Source: Candidatus Dormiibacterota bacterium
Lineage (GTDB): Bacteria > Chloroflexota > Dormibacteria > Aeolococcales > Aeolococcaceae
Direction: 5' to 3'
DNA: 64,000 nt
NCBI GenBank assembly: GCA_036561525.1
Contig: DATBPD010000023.1
Span: 58,930 to 122,929 of the forward strand
Shown here: positions 6,092-41,934 of the stretch, in pieces
How the letters are laid out: each line of letters begins with the position of its first letter
Position numbering within the stretch: the first letter of the stretch is position 1
Program-made: the position numbers and the translations under genes
The notes under the pieces: model-generated
Told to the model about the DNA's origin: nothing
Seen by the model: only the letters and a program-made list of their open reading frames with translations
Databases searched by the model: none

Positions 6092-7216
6092 ATGCGAGCT
6101 CCGCAGCTGGCGATCCTCGCCTCCGTCACCGCGCTGGCCGCCTGCGGACCGGTGACCGCCGGCCCCGTCCCGACGGCAAGTCCGGCGGCTCACACGACGT
6201 CGGCAGCGCCCAGCGTGACCACGGCGCCGCCGACACCCGCACCCCTGCCGCCGCTGGCCGTTCTACAGAGCGACACTGCGCTGACCGCCGTCGACGACGG
6301 CGGCAAGGTGCAGTGGAGCCTCACACGTGCCGAGATGAACACGCTGCTGTCGGCAACGGCGCACGACGCCATCAGCGCGCGCGTCGCCGGCCCCAACGTC
6401 ATCCTGTCGGTTGTTCCGGCCGCGTCGACCACCAAGGGCAGGCTCGTGGTGCTCGACGGCACGGGGACATCGCTTGGTGCGAGCTCCTTCACGCCCAACA
6501 ACGCCGCTGACGATGTGTATGGGTCACCCAGCGGATCGGAGTGGGCATACAGCATTGACGACAGCCCCGCCTCCGCCACCCGCCATCACGGGAGGATCAT
6601 CGTCGCCGGCATCGGGACTGCCCCGCACACTGTGTTCTCGTGGGTCGCTCCCGCGGGCAGTGTCAACGAGCGTGTGGCCGGCTGGACCGACATGGGCATC
6701 GTCATGGAGCGCATCAGCCTGGAGGGATGCGGCGTCGGCTTCCATTCCGACGGAGCTTCCTTTCTCGTCGATCCTGTGGCCGGCACGCTGACCGACCTCT
6801 TCGTCGGCGGTGACCATTACGGCGATGCGCGCCATGGCGTGAAAGTCGCATTCGCCGCCCGGTCATCCTCGGCGGTGGTCGTGAAGGGCGTCCGCTTCGA
6901 CGAGGGTGGGACAGTCGTCGACAGCGTGTTCGTGAGTCCCGACGGCAGCCGAGTGGGCGTGGGGCGCGTCTCTGTCGTGGTGTGCGCCGGCAGCCCGACG
7001 TTGACGGTCAGCACCGAGCTCATCGACGTCTCCACAGCTGGTCACAGCGACATCACCGGTTGCGAGATCAGCGGCTGGTTCGACGCCGGCGATTTCGTCT
7101 GCAGCCCCCAGGACAGCACCAGCTCGACGCCAACGCAGAGGACCGAGGATGTCGCGGGCCACGCCGGCACCGTCCTCGGGCTCGGGCGCTTGGCGGGAGT
7201 CCTGTCGAGCGCCTGA
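6092..7216 (+). CDS. lipoprotein, hypothetical
   Basis: An internal ATG at 6092 is preceded by GGAG. The product starts with signal peptide MRAPQLAILASVTALAACG (lipobox) and is Ala/Thr/Ser-rich. Confidence 0.6.
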   Translation: MRAPQLAILASVTALAACGPVTAGPVPTASPAAHTTSAAPSVTTAPPTPAPLPPLAVLQSDTALTAVDDGGKVQWSLTRAEMNTLLSATAHDAISARVAGPNVILSVVPAASTTKGRLVVLDGTGTSLGASSFTPNNAADDVYGSPSGSEWAYSIDDSPASATRHHGRIIVAGIGTAPHTVFSWVAPAGSVNERVAGWTDMGIVMERISLEGCGVGFHSDGASFLVDPVAGTLTDLFVGGDHYGDARHGVKVAFAARSSSAVVVKGVRFDEGGTVVDSVFVSPDGSRVGVGRVSVVVCAGSPTLTVSTELIDVSTAGHSDITGCEISGWFDAGDFVCSPQDSTSSTPTQRTEDVAGHAGTVLGLGRLAGVLSSA

Positions 7217-7227
7217 CCCCGACGCTC

Positions 7228-8370
7228 TCAGAGCCCCAGCGCCGTCTTGGCGATGATCTCCTTCATCACCTCGTCGGTGCCGGCCCCGATGCGGATCAGA
7301 CGCGAGTCCCTGAAGTAGCGCGAGATGTGCGACTCGGCCATGAAGCCGAAGCCGCCGTGCAGCTGAAGGCAGGTGTCGGCCACGCGCGAAGTCACCTGGC
7401 CGACAAAGAGCTTGGCCATGGAGATCTCTGCCACCGGGTACTCGCCGTTGTTCCAACGCTCGGCGACGGCGTACACGTAGTTCTTGGCGATGCTGATGTC
7501 CGTGTAGAGGTCCACCAGCTTGTGCCGGTTGACCTGGAACCTGGCGATGGGCCGGCCGAACGCCTCACGCTCCTTGCACCAGCGCAGGGTCTCCTCGAAC
7601 ATCACCTCGGCGCCAGCGATGCTCCCCGCGCTGCCGATCAGCCGCTCACCCTGGAGCTCCCACATCAGGTGATAGAACCCCTGGCCCACCTCGCCGAGGA
7701 CCGCTGACTCGGGCACGTCGACGTCGCTGAACGACAGCTCGGCGGTGTCGCTGGCGTGCATGCCGAGCTTCTTGAGCTTGCGGCTCACCGCGAAACCGGG
7801 CGTCGCCTTGTCGACGAGGAACAGCGTGATGCCGTGCGCGCCCTCCTCCGCGGTGCCCGTCCGGGCGACCAGCAGGATGTAGTCGGCGCGCACGCCGTTG
7901 GTGATGTAGAGCTTGGCGCCGTTGATGCGCCAGCCACCGTTGTGGCGGACCGCGCGAGTGCGGACGGCGGCGACATCGCTGCCGGTGTCGGGCTCGGTGA
8001 TGCCGAGGCTGGCGATCTTCTCGCCGCGGATCGCCGGCACCAGGTAGCGCTGCTTCTGCTCCTCGGTGCCGAACTTGAGGATGGGCGGCGTGGCCATCTC
8101 CGCCTGTACGGAGATCGCCATCCCCACGCCACCCGAACCACAGCGAGCCATCTCCTCGGCCAGGACGATCGCGCTCCAGTAGTCGCCGCCCTGCCCCCCG
8201 TACTCCGGCGGGTAGCGCAGGCCGAGCAGGCCGAGCTCACCCATCCGCCTGAAGACGCTGTCGGGGAAGTGCTCAGCCGCCTCCCATTCGTCGGCGTGGG
8301 GGCGCAGCTCCTTGCTGACGAAGTCCCTGACGGTTTCGCGCAGCGCGTCGTGGTCGGCGGTGAACGGCAT
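7228..8370 (-). CDS. acyl-CoA dehydrogenase
   Basis: The product from MPFTADHDALRETVRDFV carries ACAD motifs GITEPDTGSDVAA and QLHGGFGFMAE. Confidence 0.9.
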   Translation of the reverse strand: MPFTADHDALRETVRDFVSKELRPHADEWEAAEHFPDSVFRRMGELGLLGLRYPPEYGGQGGDYWSAIVLAEEMARCGSGGVGMAISVQAEMATPPILKFGTEEQKQRYLVPAIRGEKIASLGITEPDTGSDVAAVRTRAVRHNGGWRINGAKLYITNGVRADYILLVARTGTAEEGAHGITLFLVDKATPGFAVSRKLKKLGMHASDTAELSFSDVDVPESAVLGEVGQGFYHLMWELQGERLIGSAGSIAGAEVMFEETLRWCKEREAFGRPIARFQVNRHKLVDLYTDISIAKNYVYAVAERWNNGEYPVAEISMAKLFVGQVTSRVADTCLQLHGGFGFMAESHISRYFRDSRLIRIGAGTDEVMKEIIAKTALGL

Positions 8371-9448: not shown

Positions 9449-9487
9449 TTGCGGTTGCCAACACGTATTCGAGGAGTGGTCCTGGGC

Positions 9488-10018
9488 ATGACCACTCTCA
9501 TCGTCGGCCCCATTCTCGCCGCCACGCTGGTGGCCGCCAGCCAGCCAAAGGCCGGCCATCCCACCACCCCGGCGGTGAGTGATGCGCAGACCATGGTTCG
9601 CATCGAGGTGCGCAGCGCGCCGCTTGCCGTTGCCGAGTCGCTGCGAGCGCAGGCCCCGCCGCCGGCCACCCCGGCACCGACGCCCGCTCCCACCCTGGCG
9701 CCGAAGCCGAAGCCACCTGCGGCCGTCAGGCCGGTGGCCGTCGCTCCTGCCGACCCCAACAGCATCATCGGCATCATCCAGGCCGCCGCCGCCCGCTGGG
9801 GCGTGTCGGGAAGCTGGATGGTGAGCATCGCGCGCTGCGAGTCCGGCCTCCGCCCCACGGCTGTCAATCCGAGCGGGCCATACCGCGGCCTGTTCCAGTT
9901 CCTGCAGTCGACGTTCACGCACAACGGCGGCACCGACATCTGGAGCGCCACTGACCAGTCGAACATCGCCGCCAAGATGCTCGCCCACGGCCAGGCTCAC
10001 CAGTGGAGCTGCGCCTGA
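9488..10018 (+). CDS. transglycosylase-like domain protein (Rpf/lytic-transglycosylase-like, Pro/Ala-rich linker)
   Basis: The product has an N-terminal TM/signal MTTLIVGPILAATLVAAS, a Pro-rich linker and a C-terminal SIARCESGLRPTAVNPSGPYRGLFQF domain. An alternative TTG start lies at 9449. Confidence 0.7.
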   Translation: MTTLIVGPILAATLVAASQPKAGHPTTPAVSDAQTMVRIEVRSAPLAVAESLRAQAPPPATPAPTPAPTLAPKPKPPAAVRPVAVAPADPNSIIGIIQAAAARWGVSGSWMVSIARCESGLRPTAVNPSGPYRGLFQFLQSTFTHNGGTDIWSATDQSNIAAKMLAHGQAHQWSCA

Positions 10019-11246: not shown

Positions 11247-12016
11247 GCTCGCAGATCCTCGACGGCGGGCCGGTGGACGCGGTTCTCTTCGACTACGGCC
11301 TCACCCTGGTCGACTTCGAGCGCCCGGAAGCCGCCATCGATGCCGCGCAGGTGGAGATCGCGCACGGCATCGGCCAGGCTGGCTACCCGGCGCCATCCCC
11401 GGACACGCTGCGCGCCGAGGTCCACGACCGGGTTGAGGCTGAGGTGAGAGCCCACGAGGAGCGTGGTGCACTCGAGGAGATCGACATCGTGGATGTCGAG
11501 CGCCGCGCCTTTGCCGCCCTTGGGCTGTATCTCGACGACGACCTCCGCGATCGTTGCAGCCGGATCGCGCAGGAGGCCTGGTTCTGTGGCGTGCGTGCCT
11601 ACCCCGAGGTCGCCGAGGTGCTCGGCACCCTGAGTGCCGCCGGGCTCCGCCTGGGGATCTGCTCGAACGCTGCCTATCGTCCGGCGAGCATGCGCGACCA
11701 GGTCTGGCACGTCGGCATCGGCGACCTCATCGATGCCGCCGTCTTCTCGAGCGGTGTGGGCTGGCGCAAGCCGTCGCCGAGGATCTTCAGCGCGGCCCTC
11801 GAGGCGCTCGGCGCGAGCGCGGCCACCACCGTCTTCGTCGGCGACCGGTTGCGCGAGGACGTCGGCGGCGCCCACGGGGCAGGTATGCGGGCCGTGCTCG
11901 TGTCGCGACCGAGGGTGCCTGCAAGCCAAGCGGCGGATGCTGGGGAGCCGGAGGCTGTGATCAGCTCCCTCCGCGAGCTGCCCGCGCTGGTCCTCGACGC
12001 CCGCGTGGCGCGGTGA
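11243..12016 (+). CDS. HAD-superfamily hydrolase
   Basis: The product has motif I DAVLFDYGLTLVDF and a motif IV-like VFVGDRLREDVGGAHGAG. Confidence 0.8.
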   Translation: MSSQILDGGPVDAVLFDYGLTLVDFERPEAAIDAAQVEIAHGIGQAGYPAPSPDTLRAEVHDRVEAEVRAHEERGALEEIDIVDVERRAFAALGLYLDDDLRDRCSRIAQEAWFCGVRAYPEVAEVLGTLSAAGLRLGICSNAAYRPASMRDQVWHVGIGDLIDAAVFSSGVGWRKPSPRIFSAALEALGASAATTVFVGDRLREDVGGAHGAGMRAVLVSRPRVPASQAADAGEPEAVISSLRELPALVLDARVAR

Positions 12017-13047
12017 GGGCGGTGCAGTTCTCGGCGTACGGGGCTGCGCCACGGCTCATCGAGACAGATGCGCCGCCTTGCCCGGCCGACGGCGTCGTCG
12101 TCAAAGTCATGGCGACGGGTCTGTGCCGATCCGACTGGCACGCCTGGATGGGTCACGAGACCGTCCCCCTGCCGCACATCCCCGGCCACGAGTTCGCCGG
12201 GGTGATCGCAGCCGTCGGCGATGACGTCAGAGGGTGGTCGGTCGGCGACCGGGTCACCGCGCCGTTCGTGCTCGGCTGCGGGGTCTGCGACTACTGCCGC
12301 GCCGGCGACGCACAGGTCTGCCCGGACCAGCGCCAGCCGGGTTTCACTGGTCCCGGCTCGTTCGCCGAGCTGGTCGCCGTCGAGCGCGCCGCTGCCAACC
12401 TGATTGCGCTGCCCGCCGAGCTCGACTTCGTCGCCGCCGCGTCACTGGGTTGCCGTTTCTCGACCGCCTTCAGGGCCCTGACGGCGCACGGCAACGTGGT
12501 CGCCGAGCAATGGGTGGCGGTTCACGGCTGCGGCGGGCTCGGACTGTCCGCGGTGATGATCGCCAGCGCGCTTGGCGCGCGCGTGGTGGCCCTCGACCCG
12601 TCGCCCGCGGCTCTGACCTGGGCTGCGGCGCTGGGTGCGGCGCAGCTCATCGACGTGGGCGCCCACCCGGACTCGGCCGCGGCCGTGATCGACGTCACCG
12701 GCGGCGGCGCGCACGTGTCGGTCGATGCCATCGGTGACGCGAGGACCGCGGTCGCGTCGGTGATGTCGCTGCGCCGGCGCGGCCGTCACGTCCAGGTCGG
12801 TCTGCTGCACGGGGCGGACGCGATGACCGCGCTGCCGATGGACCGGGTCATCTCGCACGAATTGCAGATCCACGGTTCGCACGGGATGGCCGCGCATGAA
12901 TATCCGGCCATGCTCGCGCTTGTGGTCTCCGGCGCGCTGCGCCCCGACCGGCTGGTGGGCGCGGTGATCGGGCTCGACGCAGCCGCCGACGCGCTCACCG
13001 CGATGCACAGCAACGCCGGGCATGGCATGACGGTGATCGCGCTGTAG
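12013..13047 (+). CDS. zinc-binding alcohol dehydrogenase (MDR family)
   Basis: A GTG start overlaps the HAD stop. The product has CRSDWH and GHEFAGV zinc-site motifs plus a Rossmann motif VHGCGGLGLSAV. Confidence 0.85.
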   Translation: MRAVQFSAYGAAPRLIETDAPPCPADGVVVKVMATGLCRSDWHAWMGHETVPLPHIPGHEFAGVIAAVGDDVRGWSVGDRVTAPFVLGCGVCDYCRAGDAQVCPDQRQPGFTGPGSFAELVAVERAAANLIALPAELDFVAAASLGCRFSTAFRALTAHGNVVAEQWVAVHGCGGLGLSAVMIASALGARVVALDPSPAALTWAAALGAAQLIDVGAHPDSAAAVIDVTGGGAHVSVDAIGDARTAVASVMSLRRRGRHVQVGLLHGADAMTALPMDRVISHELQIHGSHGMAAHEYPAMLALVVSGALRPDRLVGAVIGLDAAADALTAMHSNAGHGMTVIAL

Positions 13048-13082
13048 CGCGTGCAGCCGCCACATCGCATCGGTTGTAACGA

Positions 13083-13115
13083 TTGTCGGGACCTTCAAGA
13101 GTGCCGGTCTATACT
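13083..13115 (+). promoter_or_regulatory. candidate promoter: TTGTCG, 21 nt, TATACT
   Basis: TATACT at 13110-13115 is a near-consensus -10 hexamer, rare in 72% GC DNA. The spacer to TTGTCG is longer than optimal. Confidence 0.2.
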
Positions 13116-13430
13116 CGCGGAACCTTACGACCACGCCGTCAATTTCGAGGCACCGATCCGGTGGACTTTCGTGACTACCTCAAGGAGAGGTGCCGCGCCC
13201 GCGGTATCTCACTCCACCGTCTGGCGCTGCTCTGCGACCTCAACCAGATCTATTTCTACCAGGCGGTGAACAAGAACAAGGAGAACCCACCGCCGTGGGT
13301 GCTGCGCCGCGCCGCGCCCCACCTCGGCGTCTCCTACGTTGAGCTGATGATCGCCGCCGGATATCTCCGCGACGAGGACCTGCGCGAATGGACCAGGGGC
13401 ACCTCGGTGGCGGCAGCGCCGGCGAGCTGA
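13083..13430 (+). CDS. XRE-family helix-turn-helix transcriptional regulator (small)
   Basis: The product has an HTH-like segment LKERCRARGISLHRLALLCDLNQIYFYQAVN. The start is ambiguous between TTG 13083 and GTG 13161. It lies immediately upstream of dinB. Confidence 0.55.
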   Translation: MSGPSRVPVYTRGTLRPRRQFRGTDPVDFRDYLKERCRARGISLHRLALLCDLNQIYFYQAVNKNKENPPPWVLRRAAPHLGVSYVELMIAAGYLRDEDLREWTRGTSVAAAPAS

Positions 13431-13485
13431 CCGGGCAGTTCGCGCGAGGCATCGGGACCGCTCACGCGCCACCGATACTTCATCC

Positions 13486-14697
13486 GTGCAGTGGCCGCGG
13501 GCGATCATCCATATCGATCTCGACGCCTTCTACGCGTCGGTCGAGCAGCTGCGCCGGCCGGAGTTGCGCGGCCGGCCGGTGATCGTTGGCGGCGGTGGTG
13601 ACGACTACCGGCGCGGCGTGGTCAGCGCGGCGTCGTACGAGGCGCGGCGCTACGGCGTGCGCTCCGCGATGCCTTTGGGGCGCGCCCGCCGCCTCTGCCC
13701 GCATGCGGCGGTCCTGCCTGTCGATTTCGTCGCCTACCGCGCCGCCTCCCGCCAGGTGTTCGCGATTGCGCGCGACTTCACGCCTCAGCTCGAACCGGCG
13801 TCGCTGGACGAGGCCTACCTCGATGTTGGCGGCTCGATCGCGCGAATGGGACCGCCGGACCAGATGGCCGCCGAGCTCCGCGACCGTGTCGCCGATGAGT
13901 GTGGCCTCGACCTGTCGTGCGGAGTGGCCACGTGCAAGCTCGTCGCCAAGGTGGCGTCCGACCTGCGCAAGCCGCGCGGCTTCGTTGTGGTCCGGCCCGG
14001 CGACGAGGCCGCTTTCCTGGCGCAACTGCCGCTGCGCCGCCTGCCCGGGCTCGGGCCGGCGTCGGAGAAGGCGCTTGCCGGGCTGGGGTTGACCACTCTC
14101 GGTGAGCTGGCGGCATTCCCGCTGCAGACGCTGCGACGCCGCCTCGGCGAGCACGCCGCGTTGAGCCTGACTGAGCGCGCACGCGGCGTCGACCACAGCG
14201 AGGTGGTGCTCCCGACCCGGCCCAAGAGCGTGTCGCGCGAGGAGACCTTCTCGACCGACGTGTCCGACCGCGGCGAGCTGCACCGCCGCCTGCGCGAGTG
14301 CGCCGCCGATGTCGGGCGCCAGCTACGCCGCGGCGGCTGGACGGCGAAGACCGCCACGCTCAAGCTTCGCTACGCCGATTTCACCACGCTCACGCGCCAG
14401 CTCACCTGGCCCAGCCCGCAGCACGGTGACACGGTGCTGGCGGAGGCGGCGCTGCATCTCTTCGACGCCACCTGGGCCGGCACGCCGGTGCGGCTGCTTG
14501 GCATGGGCGTCAGCGGCATCATCGACACTGCCCAGCTCGACCTCTTCGAGACCGTCGGCTCGCCGCGCGACGAGCACCTCGACCAAACCCTCGACGTGCT
14601 CCGCGACCGCTTCGGCAAAGCCGCCCCGCACCGCGGTGCCGAGCCGGCGATGCGCGACCTCGACTTCCGTGGCGAGGACCTGCGCGACGGCGAGTGA
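13486..14697 (+). CDS. dinB: DNA polymerase IV (Y-family)
   Basis: The product from a GTG start has IHIDLDAFYASVEQ, SLDEAYLDV and a little-finger domain. Confidence 0.9.
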   Translation: MQWPRAIIHIDLDAFYASVEQLRRPELRGRPVIVGGGGDDYRRGVVSAASYEARRYGVRSAMPLGRARRLCPHAAVLPVDFVAYRAASRQVFAIARDFTPQLEPASLDEAYLDVGGSIARMGPPDQMAAELRDRVADECGLDLSCGVATCKLVAKVASDLRKPRGFVVVRPGDEAAFLAQLPLRRLPGLGPASEKALAGLGLTTLGELAAFPLQTLRRRLGEHAALSLTERARGVDHSEVVLPTRPKSVSREETFSTDVSDRGELHRRLRECAADVGRQLRRGGWTAKTATLKLRYADFTTLTRQLTWPSPQHGDTVLAEAALHLFDATWAGTPVRLLGMGVSGIIDTAQLDLFETVGSPRDEHLDQTLDVLRDRFGKAAPHRGAEPAMRDLDFRGEDLRDGE

Positions 14698-14704
14698 CGG
14701 CTGC

Positions 14705-14975
14705 TCAGACGTGCAGGAGCGACTTCACCAGCTGGATGACGAGCACGGCTCCGCCGCCTTTGACGAGCATGTCGACAAGGAAGCCCGAGCTCGACTCCTG
14801 GTGCTGCATCACCTTGTGCAGGCTGGACAGCGCCACGCCGGCCGGGATCAGGTACTCACCGGCAGTGAGCAGCGGGCTCGCAATCGTGTCCCAAACGTGC
14901 AATGTGTCTTTGCTCGGATCCACCTGGATGTCGGCGACAAGGTGGGCGAGCACGGTGACCACGAGGAGCATCGGA
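14705..14975 (-). CDS. small hypothetical protein (88 aa), convergent with dinB
   Basis: ATG at 14975 is preceded by GGGAG 8 nt upstream. GC3 is about 87% although the locus is AT-richer. The product reads MLLVVTVLAHLVADIQVDPS... with hydrophobic termini. Confidence 0.4.
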
Positions 14976-15362: not shown

Positions 15363-17003
15363 ATGCTGACGATCGCGTCGCGATTCCCCGTGAACATGCA
15401 CATGGTTCTGGACGCGTGCGGTGTCTTCGGCCTCGGGCTGGGTGGAATCTGCAGCTTCGTCACCGGAGCGGCGGACTGGTTCAGCCAAACGCTGGAGGTC
15501 ATCCAGAACCCATTCAAATGGCTGTACCACCACACGCTCGGCGCGCCCATCCCCCAGCACGCGGGTGACCCCGGCTGGGACGCGTGCCAGGCGGATTGGA
15601 GCCAGCCGACATGCCCGAAGCTCATCGACGAGCTCAAGCCCGGCAGCCTGACGCTGTCGAGCACCTGGCCGCGCCTGTACAGCTCATTGTCGGTGTCGGG
15701 CGTCTTCATCGCTGCGACGTGCTGCGTTGTCCGGGTGGTGCGTGGGGTCTTCGACGAGCGCGTGGTGGGCGCGCACGTGGTGATCGACAACGTCGTCCGC
15801 ATGGTGGTCGCGACCGGCGTCCTGGTGGTGCCGACACCGGACAACTCATTGCTCCTCAACGCGCTGAGGCTCAGCACCCTGGCGTCCGGTCGCATCGCGG
15901 AGGCGAGCGCAGGCGCCGTCTCGTCAGCCTTCACTGCGAACCTCGATCTCAGCACAGTGGTGGGCAACATTGCGGCAACCGGCTTCGGGATCGCCGGCAT
16001 CGGTGACTTCCTGGTGGCGATCCCCATCCTGCTGGTCGCGGCCGCGTTCGTCTACGTGATGGCTCTGTACCTGCTGCGCATCATCCAGCTCATCTTCGCT
16101 GTGGCCACAGCGCCGCTGTTCGTCGCTCTGGCCGTGTACGACCACCGCAACCGGTTCCTGCAGTGGTGGCTCGACTTGTTCGCCTCGGCAATGTTGCTGC
16201 CCGTAGTTCTGGCCATCTGCGGGTCGCTGACGGCGGGCGTCGCCCTCTTCCTGCTCAACGGCAATCAAAACCAGCTCTCGCCAGGCGGCGCTGCGGAGTC
16301 GGTGACACGCACGCTGCTGGCCTGTTTTGCCGTGCTCGGCGGCGTCTGGATGACCGGCAAGGCGGTGCACGGCCTGGCCTGGCGACAGTTCAGCCACGGC
16401 GGGATCACCGGAGCCGCGACCGCTGTGTCGACCACGGTCATGGCGCTCCCCACCGCTGCCGGTGACGTCGCATCCCTGATGAGGGTCAGCGGCCGCACGC
16501 CGCGGCCAGGAGGTCTGCTCGAGACTCTGAGCCGCCCGGCAGGGCGCCGCGGTGCCACCGCGCCGACCCCAACGCGAGCGGCCGAGACGGGATCTGTCGT
16601 TGCCGCCGCAGCCGCTGGACACGCCGCGGCGGTGCTCGGCGAGAGCCCGGAGGTCGAGGCCGCGATGGAGGCGGCCGGCAGCGCGGACTTCAGCCGTCAT
16701 GGGTCGACGGCAGGCGTTCTTGATCAGCCGGCGATGAGAGTCGCATTCAACCAGGCCATTGGCGCGTCCATCGGGCGGTTCGCGACATCTGACGAGGGCC
16801 GGCTGGTGGTGGCGGAATCGACGCGGCATCTCGATGCCGCAGCCGCCGACCCCGCGGTGAGGGTGGCCGAGTACACCAGGGCGCTGGCGGACGATCCGCG
16901 CACCGGCAACGCGGTCGCCGGCCTGGCCTTCGCCAGCCTCCTTCACAACCAGGCACCGGACCTCGCGCCGATCCTGCGCAACCGCGCAGTCACCGCGGCA
17001 TGA
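15363..17003 (+). CDS. VirB6/TrbL-like polytopic membrane protein (T4SS/MPF-like)
   Basis: The 546-aa product has at least 6 TM helices (VVATGVLVVPT, FLVAIPILLVAAAFVYVMALYLL, LLPVVLAICGSLTAGVALFLL) and a hydrophilic Ala-rich C-terminus. Its stop overlaps the next start in an ATGA. Confidence 0.55.
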   Translation: MLTIASRFPVNMHMVLDACGVFGLGLGGICSFVTGAADWFSQTLEVIQNPFKWLYHHTLGAPIPQHAGDPGWDACQADWSQPTCPKLIDELKPGSLTLSSTWPRLYSSLSVSGVFIAATCCVVRVVRGVFDERVVGAHVVIDNVVRMVVATGVLVVPTPDNSLLLNALRLSTLASGRIAEASAGAVSSAFTANLDLSTVVGNIAATGFGIAGIGDFLVAIPILLVAAAFVYVMALYLLRIIQLIFAVATAPLFVALAVYDHRNRFLQWWLDLFASAMLLPVVLAICGSLTAGVALFLLNGNQNQLSPGGAAESVTRTLLACFAVLGGVWMTGKAVHGLAWRQFSHGGITGAATAVSTTVMALPTAAGDVASLMRVSGRTPRPGGLLETLSRPAGRRGATAPTPTRAAETGSVVAAAAAGHAAAVLGESPEVEAAMEAAGSADFSRHGSTAGVLDQPAMRVAFNQAIGASIGRFATSDEGRLVVAESTRHLDAAAADPAVRVAEYTRALADDPRTGNAVAGLAFASLLHNQAPDLAPILRNRAVTAA

Positions 17004-19645
17004 GCGCTGGGGGCGGGGCCATCCGCGTTCCGCTCGCCGTCGATGCGCAGTTCCGCCTCCCGGTCGGGCCGATGCTGCTCCCCGTCCGTTCGCTGGTGCT
17101 GGCGGCTCTGGCCGGCCCGCTCGCCTACGGGCTGCTCGCGATCGGGCTGCCCGGGCTGTGGGGTGCAGCGGGCGCCGGCTTCGTGCTGGCTTTGGCCGCC
17201 TCGCTCGGCTTGCCCGAGCGGCAGGGTGTGTGGCTCGGGACCCACGTCGCCTATCGCCACGCCTGGCGCATCATGCCCTCCACGGTCAGCCGCGGCCAGG
17301 CAGCACGCGCCCGTGTCCGTGCCCTGCGCGGCGCGGTTCACGTCACCGGCGAACGGCCGGCGGTCAGTCCGTCGAGGTGGGTTCCGCGCCGTCTCCGCAC
17401 CTTCCTGGTGGTGCCGGCGACCTCGACCGATGCAGCGGGAATACTGCGCCTGGACCCCGGTGGCGACCGCGCGGTGCTCATGCTCGAGGGCCCCGCTGTC
17501 AGTGTCGCAGGCGACGGGTACCTCGAATGGTGCCGCGCCGCGGTCCGCTGGATCGGGTCTCTGGACTGCCCGGCTCAGTTCATCACCCTGATGACCCACC
17601 ACGACGCCCGCCGCGTCGGCGAGGCCTTCGACCGTCGCGTCGCCGCCTGGCCGCGCACTCCGCTCTACGAGCTCGAGCGCGGGTTGGCAGGAACACTGGC
17701 GCAGACGACGCTCGGGCTGCGGCACTACGTGGTCCTTGCACCCGGTTCGGCGGGCGCCGACGGGGTGCCGCACCGCAGCACTCCATGGCGCGCCGGCGAT
17801 GCGCGCGACACCACGCACGACCAGGCTGATCGCGCTCTCCAGTCTGCGCTGCGGATGGCACCCGGCTTCGCCATCGAGGTTCGCGCGGCCGACCGCGACG
17901 ACATCGCTGCACTGCTGGCGCACACCGCGCTGGGGGCGTCGCGGGCGATGGTGGGGGAGGATGTGCTGCGGGTCGGCGACCGCCATCATGTCGTGCTGAC
18001 GACCACGCAGCTGCCCGCGATCATCGAGGTGGGGGCGGTCGTCGAAGCCATGACCCGGGCTCACGCCGTCGGAGTTGCCAGCCTGCATCTCCTGCCGGTC
18101 AGCACCGCCGTTGCCCAGAAGTACCTCCATCGTCGCTCGGCGATGCTCGACTACGTGCGCCGCCGGGGGGCTGATCCCGTGGAAGCCGAGGTGGCCCTGC
18201 AGGAGACCACCGACGTCGTGGCGGCTCTCGCACAGCGCGACATCGTTCCGTGGCGCGTCGCCCTCACCGTGTGCGTTGCGGACCGGGAGCGAGCCAGGAC
18301 GCTGGAGGCGGCGGAACGACTGGGTGCCATCCTGGCGGCGCACGGCTTCCGGACAACTGAGGTGACCGGGCCGGGCCTTCTGCCGGCGCTCGCGCTCTCG
18401 CCGGGATGCGCGCCGCTTGCACGCAGCCTGATCTTGACATCCGACTCTGTTGTTGCGCGGATGCTGCCATGTCTGGGCACGCCGTTCGCCGACGTGTCGG
18501 CACCGCTCCTCGGCATCAACGTGCTCAACGGAACACCGGCGTACTTCTCCATCTGGAGCCAGCCGAACCACAACCTCGTCGTGGTCGGCAGCTCGGGCGC
18601 CGGCAAGTCGATGGCGGCCAAGACGTTGCTGCTCCGCCACGTGATGGAGGGCGTCGCGGCGGTGGTCATCGACCCCGACTCCGAGTACGGCGCGGTGATG
18701 CATGCAGTCGGTGGGCGGTACCTCGACCTCGGCACCGAGGCGCTCAACTGTCTGGGCGTCGCCCCGGACGCGTCGGCCGACACCGCGGCGGGGCTGGTGC
18801 TGCCCATCCTCTCGGTCATGGCCGGCGATGACCGCGGAGTCCGCGAAGGCCGGCCAATACGCCGCCTTCCCGACGAGGACCAGGGCTGGCTGCACGGCGA
18901 GCTCGTCGACTTCTTCGCAGCACGGAAACGCGCCGGGGCAGCAGAGGCGCTGATGCGGGAACTCGTCGACTTTCTGCAGCGCACATCGTTGCCGCGCGCT
19001 CTCACCGACCGTGAGCGCGATCGATGTCGCGTCATCACCGCACGCTTGCGTCGCTTCACGCAGGGGATGCGCGCTGCGGTCTTCGACCGGCCGTCGACAT
19101 TCTCAGTCGACGCTGGCCCGATCGCGATCGGGCTCAAATCATTCGCGATGAACTATGGCGCGGACCTCACCCCGGCCTTGGCCGTTCTGCTCACGGCGAT
19201 CCTCGCGGCGCTCGGGAAACGGCGCGGCCGGATGATCGTGGTCGTCGACGAAGCCCACCGCATCACCTCCGACCCCGACGCCGGCGAGGTGCTCGGTCAG
19301 CTGGTGCGCCAGGCGCGCAAGCATGGCGCCGGTGTTTGGATGCTCTCCCAGCGCGTCGAGGACTTCGTGCGCACCGACCTCGGCCGCACGCTCGCCGCCA
19401 CCTCCGCGTCGAAGCTCGTCCTCGGCACCGAGGAGGCGGTGCTCGACGAGGTGCGCGAGGTCTTCAAGCTGCGCGGCGAGGAGCTGGCTGCGATCTGCCC
19501 GTCGAGCCCCGGGAGGGGGGTGCTGCTGGCCGGCGCTGAGCGGACTGTCGTTGACGTCGTGCCGGGACCGGCGATCATGGCGATTGCCGACACGCGTGCG
19601 ACGATGTCGCCTGCGCCGGCGGGTCGCAGCGCCAACGTGGCGTAG
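17000..19645 (+). CDS. VirB3-VirB4-like conjugation/T4SS ATPase (TraC/TrbE/ConE family)
   Basis: The 881-aa product has two N-terminal TM helices (VirB3-like), Walker A NLVVVGSSGAGKS, Walker B MIVVVDEAHR, and a size typical of VirB4. Confidence 0.6.
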   Translation: MSAGGGAIRVPLAVDAQFRLPVGPMLLPVRSLVLAALAGPLAYGLLAIGLPGLWGAAGAGFVLALAASLGLPERQGVWLGTHVAYRHAWRIMPSTVSRGQAARARVRALRGAVHVTGERPAVSPSRWVPRRLRTFLVVPATSTDAAGILRLDPGGDRAVLMLEGPAVSVAGDGYLEWCRAAVRWIGSLDCPAQFITLMTHHDARRVGEAFDRRVAAWPRTPLYELERGLAGTLAQTTLGLRHYVVLAPGSAGADGVPHRSTPWRAGDARDTTHDQADRALQSALRMAPGFAIEVRAADRDDIAALLAHTALGASRAMVGEDVLRVGDRHHVVLTTTQLPAIIEVGAVVEAMTRAHAVGVASLHLLPVSTAVAQKYLHRRSAMLDYVRRRGADPVEAEVALQETTDVVAALAQRDIVPWRVALTVCVADRERARTLEAAERLGAILAAHGFRTTEVTGPGLLPALALSPGCAPLARSLILTSDSVVARMLPCLGTPFADVSAPLLGINVLNGTPAYFSIWSQPNHNLVVVGSSGAGKSMAAKTLLLRHVMEGVAAVVIDPDSEYGAVMHAVGGRYLDLGTEALNCLGVAPDASADTAAGLVLPILSVMAGDDRGVREGRPIRRLPDEDQGWLHGELVDFFAARKRAGAAEALMRELVDFLQRTSLPRALTDRERDRCRVITARLRRFTQGMRAAVFDRPSTFSVDAGPIAIGLKSFAMNYGADLTPALAVLLTAILAALGKRRGRMIVVVDEAHRITSDPDAGEVLGQLVRQARKHGAGVWMLSQRVEDFVRTDLGRTLAATSASKLVLGTEEAVLDEVREVFKLRGEELAAICPSSPGRGVLLAGAERTVVDVVPGPAIMAIADTRATMSPAPAGRSANVA

Positions 19646-20365
19646 ATGTCGGTCCCGGCGGTCGCCGCGCAGCTGCTGGCGGCACGCAGCATCCGCAAAT
19701 GGGTCGGCTGTGGCTGCCTGGTGGCCATCGCCGTCGTCGCGCTGCCGCTGTTCATGGTCTTCTCGCTGGTGAGTGGTCTCGTCTCCGGCATCACCGGCGG
19801 CGCGGCCGGCGGCAGCCAGGCCGACGGCTTCACACTCGGCGGCGCCGCCCTCGTCTCGGCCAGCGGCGAGCCGCTGCAGCCCCACACGTTCGCTGTGAGC
19901 CAGGGGTTCGGATGCACCGGCGTCGCCGTCGAAGGCCGGCCACCGGCTCCATACAGCTGCCCCCCCGACGCAGCTCACCCGACTGACCAGCGCTTCCACA
20001 CGGGCATCGACCTCGCCGCCGCTTACGGTAGCCCGGTCTTCGCGGTTGCGGCGGGCATCGTCCACGTCGTCGAGTCCTCCACCGGATTCGGCGTGCACAT
20101 CCTGCTCGCTCCGCCGGTGACCACCGGCAGGCCGGTGGTCTACCTGTACGGCCATCTGAGCGGCGTTGCCGTCGGTGACGGCGTCGCGGTCACTGCCGGC
20201 CAGCCGCTCGGGTCGGTCGGCAGCACCGGCAACAGCACTGGACCGCACCTTCACTTTGAGGTCGATGTCGGCGGTGTCCCGGTGAACCCGTGCTCGATCT
20301 TCCCCGCCGGGTACCTCGCCCCTGCGGGCGTGGCCGCCGCCGGTTGCCTGGCCTGGGCCATCTGA
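19646..20365 (+). CDS. M23 family metallopeptidase (LytM-type cell-wall hydrolase), membrane-anchored
   Basis: The product has an N-terminal TM anchor then HTGIDLAA and GSTGNSTGPHLHFEV zinc-ligand motifs. Its ATG directly abuts the VirB4-like stop (TAGATG). Confidence 0.85.
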   Translation: MSVPAVAAQLLAARSIRKWVGCGCLVAIAVVALPLFMVFSLVSGLVSGITGGAAGGSQADGFTLGGAALVSASGEPLQPHTFAVSQGFGCTGVAVEGRPPAPYSCPPDAAHPTDQRFHTGIDLAAAYGSPVFAVAAGIVHVVESSTGFGVHILLAPPVTTGRPVVYLYGHLSGVAVGDGVAVTAGQPLGSVGSTGNSTGPHLHFEVDVGGVPVNPCSIFPAGYLAPAGVAAAGCLAWAI

Positions 20366-25558: not shown

Positions 25559-26533
25559 ATGACCCAAGGGCGCGAATCTGGGGTAGGGTGGCTGCTGCCG
25601 ATGCCGACATCCGTCCCAGCACCCTTCGAAGCACTGTTTGCCGGCTCCAGCGAGGGCGATCGCGCTGCCGTCGACCTCTTGTGCCGTCTTGTCGACTCGG
25701 ACAGCGACGTGCTCCTCGAGGTGAACGGTCGGCGGGTTCCGCTGCCCGCCCCATTGCGGACGCTCCTGCAACGCGCTGTCGACCATCTCCGCCGCGGTGA
25801 TGACATCCGTCGCTCCTTCGGCCGGGCTCCTGCCCGGACACTCCTCCAACCCGTCGTCCACCTGGCCACGTCGGCGATCGCCGGCTACGAGGCGTTGAGC
25901 GACATCTCCGCGCGCGATGTCCGCAGCGCCGACAGTTGGTTCCGCGACGCGGCGGTGCTCGGCCTCGGCGAGGAGTTCGAGCTGGTGTTGCTCACCCTCG
26001 CGCTCGAGGAGCTTTCGAGCCTTCCGGACGGTGCGTATCTATCGGTGAACGTTTCGCCGCACACCCTGCTGTCATCGCAACTCCCCGAATTGCTCAGCGC
26101 AGTCGACGGCGAACGCCTCGTGGTCGAGCTGACCGAGCACGCTCCCGTGGACGACTACGCTGCCCTCGATGCCCCGCTGAAGCGGCTGCGACGGCGGGGC
26201 ATCCGCCTCGCCGTCGACGATGCCGGCGCCGGCTTCTCGAGCCTCAATCACATCCTGCTGATCCGCCCCGACATCGTGAAGCTCGACGTCTCGCTGATCC
26301 GCGATGTGGACACGGATGTCGCCCGCCGCTCGTTGGTCAGCGGCCTGTGCCATTTCACGTCCGAGATCGGGGCGGACTGCGTCGCCGAGGGCGTCGAGAC
26401 CGACGCTCAGGCCCGCGCGCTTCGCGACCTCGGTGTCGGTTTTGGCCAGGGCTGGCACCTCGGGCCTCCCCGGCGCCGGCGCGTCCGACGCGGCTCGACA
26501 GCAGTCAGGGGATCGACGCCGGCGCGACGCTGA
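25559..26533 (+). CDS. EAL-domain protein (putative c-di-GMP phosphodiesterase), stand-alone
   Basis: The product has ELTEHAPV, LAVDDAGAGFSSLNHI and EGVETDAQ motifs, with no GGDEF domain. Confidence 0.8.
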   Translation: MTQGRESGVGWLLPMPTSVPAPFEALFAGSSEGDRAAVDLLCRLVDSDSDVLLEVNGRRVPLPAPLRTLLQRAVDHLRRGDDIRRSFGRAPARTLLQPVVHLATSAIAGYEALSDISARDVRSADSWFRDAAVLGLGEEFELVLLTLALEELSSLPDGAYLSVNVSPHTLLSSQLPELLSAVDGERLVVELTEHAPVDDYAALDAPLKRLRRRGIRLAVDDAGAGFSSLNHILLIRPDIVKLDVSLIRDVDTDVARRSLVSGLCHFTSEIGADCVAEGVETDAQARALRDLGVGFGQGWHLGPPRRRRVRRGSTAVRGSTPARR

Positions 26534-27017
26534 CCCACGCCCCGCGCGTGCACGGTGTGGCCGCCGCGGTGGTGGCGCCGATCACCGGCGCGGCGTAGTA
26601 CACCCCACGAACCACAACGCTGTCGCCGAACAGGGGGAGGGGCAGTTGCACTGTCTTCTCCACTGAAGCAAAGACCTCGCACCCATCGCTGACGCACCGA
26701 ACGCCGTTGCCGGCAGCCTGTGGGACATCGGCGGTCTCGGCCACACCACCCGTCTGGGTGAGCTGTGCGGACTCGTCACCGATCTGCACGCAGCCTCGCT
26801 CGAAGGCCATCAGGCCGCCGCTCGCTCCCATGTTGACGAGATGGGTGCTCTGACCGTACAGGTAGTGTGGGTCAACCGAGTTGGCTCCAGCCTGGGCAGC
26901 GTTCTGCGCGGCAGCCTGCACGCGCGACGACCACACGAACAGGTACGCGGCGTCGGCGACGAGTGCGACCAAGCCGAAGAGAAACAGGGCGAACGCCAGC
27001 GCCATCATCATGATCAT
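26505..27017 (-). CDS. TadE/TadG-like (Flp pilus-assembly pseudopilin) protein
   Basis: The product has the N-terminal MIMMMALAFALFLFGLVALVADAAYLF typical of a TadE-like TM segment. Its 3' end overlaps the EAL gene convergently. Confidence 0.6.
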   Translation of the reverse strand: MIMMMALAFALFLFGLVALVADAAYLFVWSSRVQAAAQNAAQAGANSVDPHYLYGQSTHLVNMGASGGLMAFERGCVQIGDESAQLTQTGGVAETADVPQAAGNGVRCVSDGCEVFASVEKTVQLPLPLFGDSVVVRGVYYAAPVIGATTAAATPCTRGAWVSVAPASIP

Positions 27018-27049
27018 CTGGCCGCGCTGCTGCGGGCGCGCCGCGGCTT

Positions 27050-27610
27050 TCACTGACGGAACGGAGGCGGGATGGCCTCCGCGGTCGAGGCGATCGTCGG
27101 GTTCCACGGGACCGCCCAGGCCAGGGGCGTGCGCGAAAAGTCGAGGGTCGCTGTGGCCGTGCAGCGCACCACGCGCAGCCCCAGCGGCGGATTCAGGGTG
27201 GCGTCGACGACGTCGAGGTCACAGCTGACGAACGATCTCTGGGCGCGGCCGAGGGAGGCTCCGCTGCGCCGGCAGAGTGGATGTGCGGCGACGTCGCGCT
27301 GGGCGGGGAAGACCAGGTAGCGGCGGAAGGTCATGGTGCCGTAGAAGGTCTCCGCCGCAAATCGGCATCCCTTGGGCATGCCGCTGGTGTCGAGCGAGTC
27401 GACCCCGGAGACGGTCTGTGGGCAGCAGGTGGTGCCGTCGCTGTCGATTGCCAGCTGTGGCGCCTGGAAGAAGGATTCCGCGGCCAGCTTGGTTGCCGCA
27501 TCGATCTCCTGTTGCGCCGACACCTGCACCATGATCGCGAGGAACGCGCTGATGAGTGCCAGCAGGACCGGGATCACGATCGCGGTCTCGATCACCGCCT
27601 GGGCGTCCAT
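27050..27610 (-). CDS. TadE-like protein
   Basis: The product from an internal start has MDAQAVIETAIVIPVLLALISAFLAIMV and a Cys-rich body. Confidence 0.55.
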   Translation of the reverse strand: MDAQAVIETAIVIPVLLALISAFLAIMVQVSAQQEIDAATKLAAESFFQAPQLAIDSDGTTCCPQTVSGVDSLDTSGMPKGCRFAAETFYGTMTFRRYLVFPAQRDVAAHPLCRRSGASLGRAQRSFVSCDLDVVDATLNPPLGLRVVRCTATATLDFSRTPLAWAVPWNPTIASTAEAIPPPFRQ

Positions 27611-27645
27611 GCTCCTGCGCTGTGGATGGCGGCGCCGCCGGCCGG

Positions 27646-28275
27646 TCACGATGCGAACCGCAGTGTGTGCGTGGTGGCGACCACGTCGACGGGTATCTCC
27701 CCGGCGTGCCAGCCGAACCCGCTCAGAGGAGGCACGAGCGAGGCGAGGAAGCCGATGATGTGGACGGTCACTGTCGGTGGGTCGCCGCAGCGAGGTGTCG
27801 GCGGCAGCGGCGCGGCGGGACACCGAGGGGCTGGGGCGCTGGTGTCGTCACACACAGCAACCGTGCGCGGACCGAAATGCCGTTCGACCTCATCTGGGTC
27901 GGTCGGGCAATGCGCGAAATCGCCCTGCGGGGCTGTCGCCACAGTCGATGAAGGGCAGGGACCTCCGGCCGGATCGCACCAGGCGACGACATGGGTGCCG
28001 AACAGCGCACTCTGCAACTGCATTCGCACCGCCGCGAACAGGACAGCCGGTGTGGGAGTGGCCTGGCTCTGCGGCGTGCCGGCCGCGGCTGCGGCGAGTC
28101 GTGCCGCCTGGTCGGCCGCCGATACCGAGGCGCTCGTCTGGATCGCCCACAGCCCGGCGTCGATCGCGGCGAAGAAGCAGAGGAAGAACAGCGGCGCCAC
28201 GAACGCGAACTCGATCGTCGCCTGTCCCCAGCCTGCCTTGCCGGCGCGACGTCGCGGCGGCCGCTCCCCTCCCAT
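27646..28275 (-). CDS. TadE-like protein
   Basis: The product has ATIEFAFVAPLFFLCFFAAIDAGLW near its N-terminus. Confidence 0.55.
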   Translation of the reverse strand: MGGERPPRRRAGKAGWGQATIEFAFVAPLFFLCFFAAIDAGLWAIQTSASVSAADQAARLAAAAAGTPQSQATPTPAVLFAAVRMQLQSALFGTHVVAWCDPAGGPCPSSTVATAPQGDFAHCPTDPDEVERHFGPRTVAVCDDTSAPAPRCPAAPLPPTPRCGDPPTVTVHIIGFLASLVPPLSGFGWHAGEIPVDVVATTHTLRFAS

Positions 28276-28323
28276 GTTCTCAATGGTAGGCAGCCGGGAT
28301 GACGATTTTGGGGCGGGTCGCTC

Positions 28324-29493
28324 CTACGGGAGCACGATGAAGGTGAGGTCTTCGGGCACCAGCGGCTTGACCGTGACCGGGTTGGCGGGCTGGTCGGTGC
28401 GCGGGTCAACCAGTGTCATCCAGTTGCGGTCGCGGAAGTACTCGAGGACGTACGGACCGCCCACTGGAACGGCAGCGATGGTGAAGTCACCGTTGCCATC
28501 GGCAGTGCCGGTATAGAACGGTGCGGCGGTCACGTAGCCGCCGCCGGGGAGCTGGGTGAAGTGGGTGCTCAGCCGCACCTGCCCGCTGGCGCCGTGGCCG
28601 GCCGTGTCCACCAACGACCCCGACACCGGTTGCGCGGCGGCCAGAAGCGCGCGCGCGGTGCCGGCCTGCGGCGACGAGCCGAAACCCTTCACCAGGCGTT
28701 GCAGGGTGGTCGCGCCCTCCTCGAAATCCGACATCGAGATCTCCGACCGCGCCGCAGCCAGCAGCGTGGCCGGGTACGCAGGAGCCGCTGCCGTCGCCGC
28801 GCCGTGCGCGGCGGCATCGTCGAGCAGGGCCACAGCGTCGGTCGGGTGTTTGGCGGCGACCAGCTCCGCGGCGGCCTTGACCTCGTCGGCAGCGCGCAGC
28901 CGGGCGATCGCCTGGATGGTTGAGCCGGGCAGTGCTCCCCGCTGAGCCTCGCTGAGCCGCTGCAGCGCCAGTTGCGCATGACCCGCCTTGACCGCAGTGG
29001 CCGCAGCGTCGATGAGGATCTGGGCCCGTGTCTGCGTTGCCTGCGCGACCAGCGCGGGCTGCAGCACCTTGGCCAGCACGGCCACCGCCGAATCGAACTT
29101 GCCTGCACCGGCCAGCTGCCGCGCCCAGGCCAGCCTGGCCACCTGGGCGTCGTGCTCGGCGCTCGATGCCGCGCCGGGATCGAGCACCATGAGAAAACCG
29201 CTCCTGCCGGCCACGGCCTCGTCGAGGCTGACCGCACGCGCCGGGTTGCCGGCGGCGAGCTCCGTCGTCGCCGCAATCCGGCCGTCCTCCGCTGACGCCC
29301 GCCCTCCCAGCAGCGCGCCGACCACCGCGGCGATCAGCGCCAGCGCAACCACGACACCCAGCCGGGGACGCTGCCGCTGTGCCGGCCGTGCCAGCCCGAT
29401 CGTGGCGATGGCCCCCGGCGGAGGAGGCGGCGGCGGCGGCGGCGGCAGCAGCTCACCGGTGAGGTGGAACTGGCGCGGGGGCGGAGCGTCCAT
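28324..29493 (-). CDS. proline-rich single-pass membrane protein with helical Ala-rich ectodomain and beta-rich C-terminal domain
   Basis: The product from MDAPPPRQFHLTGELLPPPPPPPPPPG has a TM segment LGVVVALALIAAVVGALLG, then Ala-rich repeats and a C-terminal GNGDFTIAAVPVGGPYVLEY. Confidence 0.5.
   Translation of the reverse strand: MDAPPPRQFHLTGELLPPPPPPPPPPGAIATIGLARPAQRQRPRLGVVVALALIAAVVGALLGGRASAEDGRIAATTELAAGNPARAVSLDEAVAGRSGFLMVLDPGAASSAEHDAQVARLAWARQLAGAGKFDSAVAVLAKVLQPALVAQATQTRAQILIDAAATAVKAGHAQLALQRLSEAQRGALPGSTIQAIARLRAADEVKAAAELVAAKHPTDAVALLDDAAAHGAATAAAPAYPATLLAAARSEISMSDFEEGATTLQRLVKGFGSSPQAGTARALLAAAQPVSGSLVDTAGHGASGQVRLSTHFTQLPGGGYVTAAPFYTGTADGNGDFTIAAVPVGGPYVLEYFRDRNWMTLVDPRTDQPANPVTVKPLVPEDLTFIVLP
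29421..29452. repeat. (GGC/GGA)n trinucleotide tract encoding poly-Pro on the minus strand
   Basis: A run of 8 or more GGC/GCC codons lies inside the 28324-29493 CDS. Confidence 0.6.
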
Positions 29494-29583
29494 GGCGATG
29501 TCCAGACGATAGCCGAGCGTCGGGCTCTGCCTTCCCGGCGGCCGGCACACGCCAGGCGCGGCGGACGGTACCCTGCCGCGGCG

Positions 29584-41933: not shown

Positions 41934-41934
41934 G

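Follow-up and report, generated by a model that had tools for sequence, protein, structure and literature searches.

Vertically inherited VirB6-VirB4-M23 genes of Candidatus Dormibacterota as a probable domesticated type IV secretion module

Introduction

A 64-kb stretch of DNA from a Candidatus Dormiibacterota bacterium (assembly GCA_036561525.1, contig DATBPD010000023.1, positions 58,930 to 122,929), here called the window and numbered from its first letter, carries a compact set of genes related to those of type IV secretion systems (T4SSs). This locus is probably a four-gene, domesticated module derived from a T4SS, comprising a pilin-like protein, a VirB6-like membrane protein, a VirB4 ATPase fused to a VirB3-like segment and an M23 peptidase, and it would be one island of a system dispersed over the chromosome, with DNA as the most likely substrate. 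The other parts of the dispersed system would be a VirD4 encoded elsewhere on the chromosome, a second island encoding two membrane proteins (pil2 and TrbL2) and a single-stranded DNA-binding protein (SSB), and the genes of a Tad-type pilus.

Domesticated conjugation machinery has been described in archaea, as Ced and Ted, and in host-dependent Patescibacteria. If the present reading is true, domestication extends to apparently free-living, uncultured soil Dormibacterota, a sister lineage of the candidate phyla radiation (CPR), where it is phylum-wide, single-copy and under selection; the consistent linkage to Tad-type genes, VirD4 and SSB strengthens the case. The module would then be a concrete candidate for DNA exchange or acquisition in slow-growing soil and Antarctic desert bacteria, and its compact gene set (small protein, VirB6-like protein, transmembrane (TM)-anchored VirB4 and M23 enzyme) would lend itself to studies, both structural and in heterologous hosts, of minimal T4SSs of the monoderm type. 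No publication on a T4SS of Dormibacterota was found in the literature searched; some database entries are already labelled 'VirB4 family' or 'VirB6-like'.

Materials and Methods

Because the window is about 70% GC, lists of its open reading frames (ORFs) are noisy, and real genes were therefore filtered by GC content at the third codon position (GC3). Essentially all GC3-supported ORFs were screened for domains by Pfam scans, VirD4 and CpaF queries were run against the window by tblastn, and tRNAs were sought with ARAGORN. Promoter and terminator scans were uninformative. Distribution was assessed by a scan of GTDB species representatives, and gene layouts were sorted with a tblastn synteny panel. 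Screening for relaxases covered the window, the neighbours of VirD4 in loci L087 and L070, and about 10 kb around each of some 55 flanked VirB4 loci. Evidence on VirD4 and the Tad ATPase comes from the genomes of relatives, the genome of the bacterium itself being read within the 64-kb window.

The core genes

Three genes on the plus strand form the core: one for a VirB6/TrbL-like polytopic membrane protein (546 aa, 15363-17003), one for a VirB4-family ATPase (881 aa, 17000-19645) and one for a membrane-anchored, LytM-type M23 peptidoglycan endopeptidase (239 aa, 19646-20365). The stop codon of the first overlaps the start codon of the second in the sequence ATGA (17000-17003), and the stop codon of the second abuts the start codon of the third (TAGATG, 19643-19648); stop/start overlaps of the same kind are found at the orthologous loci in each of the two major clades of Dormibacterota. 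All three ORFs show the pattern of real genes, with a GC3 of 0.83-0.86. A previous model-made description of the window, derived without database searches (the sequence-only reading), had proposed a trio of coupled genes for a VirB6-like protein, a VirB3-VirB4 fusion ATPase and an M23 hydrolase. Its gene junctions are borne out by the coordinates and GC3, and its gene identities by profiles, fold and active site.

Among curated profiles, the ATPase matches TIGR02746 (TraC-F) best (1.3e-32, residues 514-816), at 112.7 bits against a cut-off of 567. TIGR00929 (VirB4_CagE) gives 2.5e-18 and 65.7 bits against a cut-off of 643, and the FATA-type models of NCBIfam, CD1110 and Mbov_0397, give 65.8 and 66.8 bits (about 1e-18), lower than the F-type TraC model. 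The best sequence in the PDB is 4ag5, VirB4 of Thermoanaerobacter (3.6e-14). When an AlphaFold (AF2) model of the ATPase (pLDDT 76.8) was submitted to Foldseek, the top match was full-length TrwK/VirB4 of R388 (8rtd_T; E = 1.7e-25, about 800 columns); the C-terminal domain of Thermoanaerobacter VirB4 was matched with a TM-score of 0.69 (E = 1e-14), HerA at 1.7e-10 and TrwB at 6e-7. The HerA profile itself reaches only 1.5e-3. An identity as a HerA/FtsK or defence-type ATPase was rejected because VirB4 profiles and fold match far better; the sequence-only reading had named HerA and FtsK as the families that could displace its assignment, and on this point it holds. The Walker A (GSSGAGKS) and Walker B (VVVDEAHR) motifs that it had pointed out are present, and residues G530-S537 and V748-R754 are invariant in 15 orthologues. 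As modelled, the protein combines a VirB4-type N-terminal domain with a canonical P-loop C-terminal domain. Since all profile scores lie far below the curated cut-offs, the ATPase is, as judged from sequence, a divergent branch of VirB4 and no equivalog of any curated model.

What about the claimed fusion to VirB3? Two N-terminal TM helices are indeed present, at about residues 20-71 by hydropathy and at residues 29-47 and 54-70 in the AlphaFold model. Residues 1-320 gave no match to PF05101 or PF12666 (VirB3/PrgI) even at E ≤ 10. In a profile search covering 1.84 billion representatives, generic VirB4s matched only profile positions of about 315-865, so the N-terminal third of the ATPase is clade-specific at the sequence level. 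The proposal thus survives as to the helices and lacks a profile match: by topology only, the helix pair fits a VirB3-like fusion.

The sole family matched by the 546-aa protein is TrbL/VirB6 (PF04610), at 19.9 bits and thus below the gathering score of 25.9; the sequence-only reading had made its assignment depend on such a match, which does exist at this sub-threshold level. The same family is matched at E ≤ 0.01 by 20 of 23 orthologues (best 3.1e-6), with no other family matched, and several orthologues carry a precomputed PF04610 match. A sequence-profile search of the PDB with the alignment of these proteins returned no match. The structural model is of moderate confidence (pLDDT 67.6), and its top match in Foldseek is TrwI/VirB6. 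The protein has a conserved Cys-rich N-terminal loop and a helical, confidently modelled C-terminal domain. With both a TrwI/VirB6-like polytopic helical fold and a gene adjoining virB4, it is VirB6/TrbL-like.

The 239-aa protein matches PF01551 at 5.3e-25; its 87.9 bits exceed the gathering score, which is 28.7. Residues H118, D122, H170, H201 and H203, which make up the HxxxD and HxH ligands plus H170, are invariant in 44-45 of 45 orthologues, and a TM segment lies at residues 15-54, in agreement with the membrane anchor that had been predicted. By its sequence it is a bona fide M23 peptidase with an intact active site, and it is presumed to be the wall-opening enzyme of the module.

The fourth gene

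The sequence-only reading had counted three genes and had passed over a fourth, as well as the second island described below. The fourth gene (14705-14971, minus strand), divergent from the VirB6-like gene, encodes an 88-aa membrane protein, small88, which is found in every orthologous locus long enough to show it. In the other Dormibacterota clade its homologue is 47-59% identical and lies on the plus strand, directly upstream of the VirB6-like gene. The N-terminus of the protein is hydrophobic and variable; after it come two hydrophobic helices that a charged loop connects. No other member of the set is as well conserved, and the ratio of nonsynonymous to synonymous substitution rates (dN/dS) is 0.09-0.11.

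Is it a pilin? Neither small88 nor the small protein of the second island, pil2, matched PF04956 or PF18895 at E ≤ 10, a Dactylosporangium control giving 2.6e-12; comparison of both with the actinobacterial T4SS_pilin by hhalign gave a probability of less than 1%, and a PDB profile search was negative. The size of the small proteins, their two helices with a charged loop, their position and their extreme conservation are consistent with a pilin. From this architecture and position, small88 is a candidate for a VirB2/CedA1-like pilin or a small translocon subunit.

Distribution and inheritance

Close homologues are all from metagenome-assembled genomes (MAGs) of Candidatus Dormibacterota, the nearest (87% identity) being from Ca. 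Dormibacter sp., to which the bacterium of the window is closely related. The locus was found in 53 Dormibacterota species representatives, once per genome, including the complete chromosomes OY970307.1 and OY970355.1. Two layouts predominate. Type A, with 15 species loci including the relatives of the window, reads SLT-NUDIX-x-HAD-x-DinB-(small gene on the minus strand)-VirB6-like-VirB4-M23-ACS-kumamolisin-LplA-...-EAL-...-TadE, an order that holds at VirB4 identities as low as 53%; in the window, the module sits between dinB and acs. In type B, with 30 species loci, the order small gene-VirB6-like-VirB4-M23 is directly followed by genes for a CpaB-like protein, a TadZ-like protein, a T2SSE ATPase, two TadB/C-like proteins, a ParA-like protein and two small proteins, and VirD4 lies within 10 kb in 13 of the 30. 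Minor layouts are seen in L021, L022 and L026 and in L044 and L045.

The GC content of the module (0.69-0.72) equals that of its flanks, and its dN/dS of 0.09-0.29 (0.23-0.29 for the M23 gene) is like that of the neighbouring dinB. By Pfam scans, and by tblastn for VirD4, the window contains no relaxase, VirD4/TcpA, VirB8-like protein, recombinase or integrase, as the sequence-only reading had stated; ARAGORN found no tRNA there, and there were no Rfam matches. Such a set of missing parts, together with a serine recombinase beside the second island of L070, would suit a decaying integrative and conjugative element (ICE) or plasmid that has lost its relaxase, coupling protein and integrase. A single locus in each of 53 species with flanks kept down to 53% identity, dN/dS values of 0.1-0.23 with intact catalytic motifs, and a window free of GC deviation and of tRNA are hard to reconcile with decay, and on conservation, composition and dN/dS we reject this explanation, to which we attach almost no credence. 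Because the locus is single-copy in 53 species, with kept synteny, flank-like GC, low dN/dS and no integrase, relaxase or tRNA in the window, the module is a vertically inherited, fixed chromosomal trait of Dormibacterota and not a mobile element or the remnant of one. The triad is thus kept as a chromosomal unit in related genomes, and of the two possibilities left by the sequence-only reading, that of a domesticated apparatus is favored.

Some observations on individual loci may be added. The VirB4 frame is fragmented in four long-read MAGs (L047, L049, L052 and L058), by frameshift assembly errors or as true pseudogenes. The gene of a more distant full-length relative with 29% identity (P0155, locus L085, 75% GC) is followed by those for a 176-aa protein and then an M23 protein, with genes for ParB_N, DnaJ and HTH proteins upstream; tblastn detected no VirB6-like gene nearby. 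An SLT/Rpf-like gene of the window (9449-10018) was considered as a VirB1 equivalent and dropped: it is syntenic, but in the other clade it is unlinked to the module.

Partners beyond the core

Homologues of VirD4 are abundant in Dormibacterota. Two of them, P0342 and P0338, share contigs of 1.87 Mb and 0.48 Mb, respectively, with type A VirB4 loci. P0342 is encoded some way downstream of VirB4, at about 69 kb, amid housekeeping genes, and no relaxase domain was detected in its neighbours. No relaxase domain was found among the neighbours of VirD4 in L087 and L070 or in the roughly 55 flanked loci.

A second island lies on the minus strand of the window. It encodes pil2, a 79-aa protein with two TM segments that is pilin-like or VirB3-like (41935-42174); TrbL2, a TrbL/VirB6-like polytopic protein of about 318 aa (40980-41936; PF19597 TrbL_4 at 1.4e-5 and PF04610 at 9.4e-4); and, directly downstream of TrbL2, an SSB of 149 aa (40479-40928; PF00436 at 1.3e-29). 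Since the ORF listed for TrbL2 (40980-42089) runs into pil2, its true start probably lies near 41936, where it is abutted by the stop codon of pil2. The latter matches no family; pil2 is 77-96% identical in 15 metagenome loci and always directly upstream of TrbL2, whose orthologues are 50-83% identical. Orthologous islands of relatives in soil metagenomes (50-96% identity) have the order pil2-TrbL2-M23 paralogue-SSB in a housekeeping context, the M23 paralogue being missing in the clade of the window. The SSB is syntenic with pil2-TrbL2 in both clades; its C-terminus is variable in eight orthologues (including those of L062, L068, L071 and L075-L077), none of these, nor the SSB of the window, having an acidic DDDIPF-like tip, and it could be either a specialised or a housekeeping copy. 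Paralogy between the VirB6-like protein and TrbL2 was tried and rejected (BLASTP E = 0.02; hhalign probability 3% despite a collinear alignment of 220 columns), and the two are assigned, as distant relatives, to a single superfamily on the sole ground that each matches TrbL independently. In L070, and on this one metagenome contig only, a large serine recombinase gene (6232-7746; Resolvase, Recombinase and Zn_ribbon_recom domains) lies directly upstream of pil2-TrbL2; the same locus has VirD4 5 kb downstream.

Three genes for TadE/TadG-like pseudopilins (26505-27107, about 27053-27604 and 27646-28275, minus strand; PF07811 TadE at 1.5e-11 and PF13400 Tad at 1e-3) lie about 6 kb downstream of the module, a position kept in type A loci. 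They belong to an operon (26505-29829, minus strand) in which the pseudopilin genes are preceded by one for a 501-aa protein without a Pfam match, the equivalent of which in relatives shows weak or faint TPR matches. Genes for a T2SSE ATPase or for TadB/C are absent from the window. By tblastn, the pseudopilins match those encoded between VirB4 and the T2SSE ATPase in L086 and L088, where the genes for the VirB6-like protein, VirB4, TadE pseudopilins and T2SSE ATPase form one co-directional cluster; the VirB4 of L088, from a genome of 33% GC, is 40% identical over its full length. In L088, L089 and L090 (ENA ERZ27237454 and others), all of 33% GC, the genes upstream of VirB4 in the cluster are Toprim and CHAP, and those downstream are TadE, TadE, Tad, CpaB-like, TadZ-like and T2SSE. 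The TadE genes at 26505-28275 are a probable detached piece of a Tad-type pilus cluster, to which a functional link may be supposed. Since the pseudopilins of the window match those in the single cluster of L086 and L088, the region from 14.7 to 28.3 kb looks like a broken-up ancestral supercluster of VirB4 and Tad genes.

This arrangement raises the question of whether the VirB4/VirB6 module is an accessory of the Tad-type (type IVc) pilus, that is, part of a hybrid machine that would produce a pilus serving adhesion or aggregation. The module is contiguous and co-directional with CpaB-like, TadZ-like, T2SSE, TadB/C-like and TadE genes in 30 Dormibacterota loci as well as in L086 and L088, and even in the window the TadE-like genes are only 6 kb away. 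In the clade of the window, however, the module stands apart from Tad ATPase genes and is still intact under purifying selection, which argues for an autonomous function; in addition, VirD4 co-occurs, and we know of no precedent. We therefore consider such an accessory role improbable. These partners also contradict the 'stripped-down minimal pore' offered by the sequence-only reading as its other possibility: VirD4 persists, at a distance of about 69 kb, in relatives that share the local synteny, a second island exists, and linkage to Tad genes, often together with VirD4, is found in most of the phylum.

Proposed function

How might such a dispersed, domesticated system work? The membrane-anchored M23 enzyme would open the peptidoglycan locally, and VirB6-like subunits together with the small two-helix protein would form a membrane conduit or a short pilus. 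A membrane-tethered VirB4 hexamer would supply the energy for assembly and translocation, VirD4 would recruit and deliver the substrate, and the Tad-type pilus would make contact with another cell or a surface. The substrate would be DNA, in a relaxase-independent exchange or import of chromosomal DNA like that of Ced/Ted. DNA is favored because VirD4 and SSB are linked to the islands, because the core triad is that of the Ced/Ted importers and because no effector-like genes were seen. What the analysis establishes is gene identity and coupling, purifying selection, conservation, fixation on the chromosome and, in relatives, linkage to VirD4, Tad and SSB genes; assembly, direction of transport and substrate are inferred.

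Alternatively, the same domesticated apparatus might export proteins, such as effectors, toxins or factors of contact-dependent interaction, after the model of the T4SS of Patescibacteria or of bacteria-killing T4SSs. The former is chromosomal and mostly relaxase-less, has peptidase or lysozyme genes by virB4 and is indispensable to epibiosis in Ca. Southlakia (PMC12102498). That no relaxase was found at the loci screened here and that VirD4 serves protein-secreting systems too would suit this alternative. On the other hand, neither effector nor immunity gene candidates could be recognised beside any of the roughly 55 loci, the second island is linked to SSB, and chromosomes of 3 Mb do not suggest that Dormibacterota are reduced, host-dependent epibionts. 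Protein export thus seems unlikely, albeit a more serious contender than a Tad accessory.

Several points weigh against a domesticated system for DNA. VirB4, the VirB6-like protein and TrbL2 all score below the curated cut-offs of their families, both small proteins lack a pilin-family match, and no component resembling VirB8 came to light. Relatives, and not the window, are where VirD4 and the Tad ATPase are seen, and the absence of relaxase refers to about 10 kb around the loci and not to whole genomes. DNA as the substrate is argued from gene neighbourhood only, while VirD4 also occurs in protein-secreting T4SSs and the SSB may be a housekeeping protein. More generally, the proposal is built from sequence data on bacteria that are uncultured, and it takes the envelope of Dormibacterota to be monoderm, as a matter of general background.

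A broader hypothesis, which we put forward only tentatively and regard as doubtful, is that Dormibacterota and the lineage of 33% GC carry an ancient, vertically inherited hybrid, in which a translocon of VirB2-like protein, VirB6, VirB4 and VirD4 is genetically coupled to a Tad-type pilus, the two together serving to exchange or import chromosomal DNA without a relaxase. Such a hybrid would be a bacterial counterpart of Ced plus Ups. It may share ancestry with the T4SS of Patescibacteria, which would then have been inherited within CPR, Chloroflexota and Dormibacterota and not acquired from Firmicutes.

Other features of the window

Compared with L001 and L002, where the two genes are about 110 bp apart, the window has some 1.3 kb extra (5957-7216) between the genes for AIM24 and an acyl-CoA dehydrogenase, containing a 419-aa ORF without a Pfam match. 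The gap between the HAD gene and dinB (12016-13486) exceeds that of L001 and L002 by about 1 kb and resembles that of the close relative L048; its candidate ORFs at 12234-12737 (plus strand) and 12442-13134 (minus strand) have no Pfam match. Between 41000 and 48000 the GC content falls to 0.65-0.67, against about 0.70 around it. This stretch includes a gene for an FG-GAP repeat protein of 603 aa (43590-45401, minus strand) and holds those for two GNAT acetyltransferases, a methyltransferase and an ABC-F ATPase; a gene for a C39-like peptidase with FG-GAP repeats lies at 47896-49512. Finally, a single 1355-aa protein (57272-61339) consists of lipoyl, E3-binding and E2 acyltransferase domains fused to 2-oxoglutarate dehydrogenase E1, an architecture that resembles the actinobacterial OdhA/Kgd-type fusion, and a dihydrolipoamide dehydrogenase gene comes after it.

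Comparison with known systems

Conjugation systems of the mating-pair formation (MPF) class FATA, such as Prg of pCF10, Tra of pIP501, Con of ICEBs1 and Tcp of pCW3, share with the Dormibacterota system a minimal inner-membrane set (a VirB1-like hydrolase, VirB3, VirB4, VirB6 and VirD4) without the VirB7/9/10 outer-membrane core. The Dormibacterota loci differ in having no relaxase, no origin of transfer (oriT) and no recognisable VirB8-like protein (PrgL/TcpC), and the module gave no match to the PrgI, PrgH and PrgL profiles. The hydrolase is M23 and not SLT plus CHAP or NlpC/P60. The sequence-only reading was mistaken in treating M23 as the typical hydrolase of MPF-FATA, since the described enzymes are of the SLT plus CHAP kind (PMC12102498). 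Furthermore, the genes are chromosomal and dispersed, and the best curated VirB4 profile is the F-type TraC and not a FATA model. Assignment to the MPF-FATA class is thus not established.

Dispersal and lack of a relaxase each have parallels among T4SSs of diderms. The T4SS genes of the rvh system of Rickettsiales are scattered in chromosomal islands, and ComB of Helicobacter takes up DNA without a relaxase. Unlike the Dormibacterota system, both keep the VirB7-10 outer-membrane core and are of the MPF-T class, and neither is known to be linked to Tad genes.

A closer likeness is found in Patescibacteria (CPR), which have been placed as sister to Chloroflexota plus Dormibacterota (PMC12102498). 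Their T4SS is phylum-wide, chromosomal and mostly relaxase-less, with VirB4, VirB6, VirB3 and VirB2-like genes near virB4, a coupling protein gene usually far from virB4, and peptidase or lysozyme genes by virB4 in Saccharimonadia (Quinonero-Coronel et al., 2025; PMC12102498). The Dormibacterota system shares the phylum-wide, chromosomal and relaxase-less character, the hydrolase by virB4 and, in relatives of the window, the distant coupling protein. It differs in that its ATPase has two N-terminal TM helices, whereas no VirB3-VirB4 fusions were reported in that study (PMC12102498), and in that the TrsD and pilin arrays typical of Patescibacteria were not seen. Moreover, the Dormibacterota system is linked to a Tad-type cluster and SSB, and its hosts are apparently free-living, with genomes of 3 Mb.

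The other of the two best parallels, an architectural one, is with Ced of Sulfolobales and Ted of Thermoproteales. These chromosomal and relaxase-less systems combine a VirB2-like pilin with VirB6-like and VirB4-like (ATPase) proteins; they import DNA and act together with type IV pili (Beltran et al., 2023; PMC9905601). The Dormibacterota module likewise joins, in its core, a small pilin-like protein of two helices to VirB6-like and VirB4-like (ATPase) proteins, is chromosomal, vertically inherited and relaxase-less, and occurs alongside a type IV-filament pilus, represented there by Ups and here by the Tad-type genes. Against this, it is bacterial and has no detectable sequence similarity to Ced/Ted, the CedB model NF041017 giving 20.5 bits against a cut-off of 700, and an M23 hydrolase, a TM-anchored VirB4, VirD4, and a second island with a VirB6-like protein and SSB are found on the Dormibacterota side. 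By analogy, the Dormibacterota module may thus be called Ced/Ted-like in architecture, and not a member of that family by sequence.

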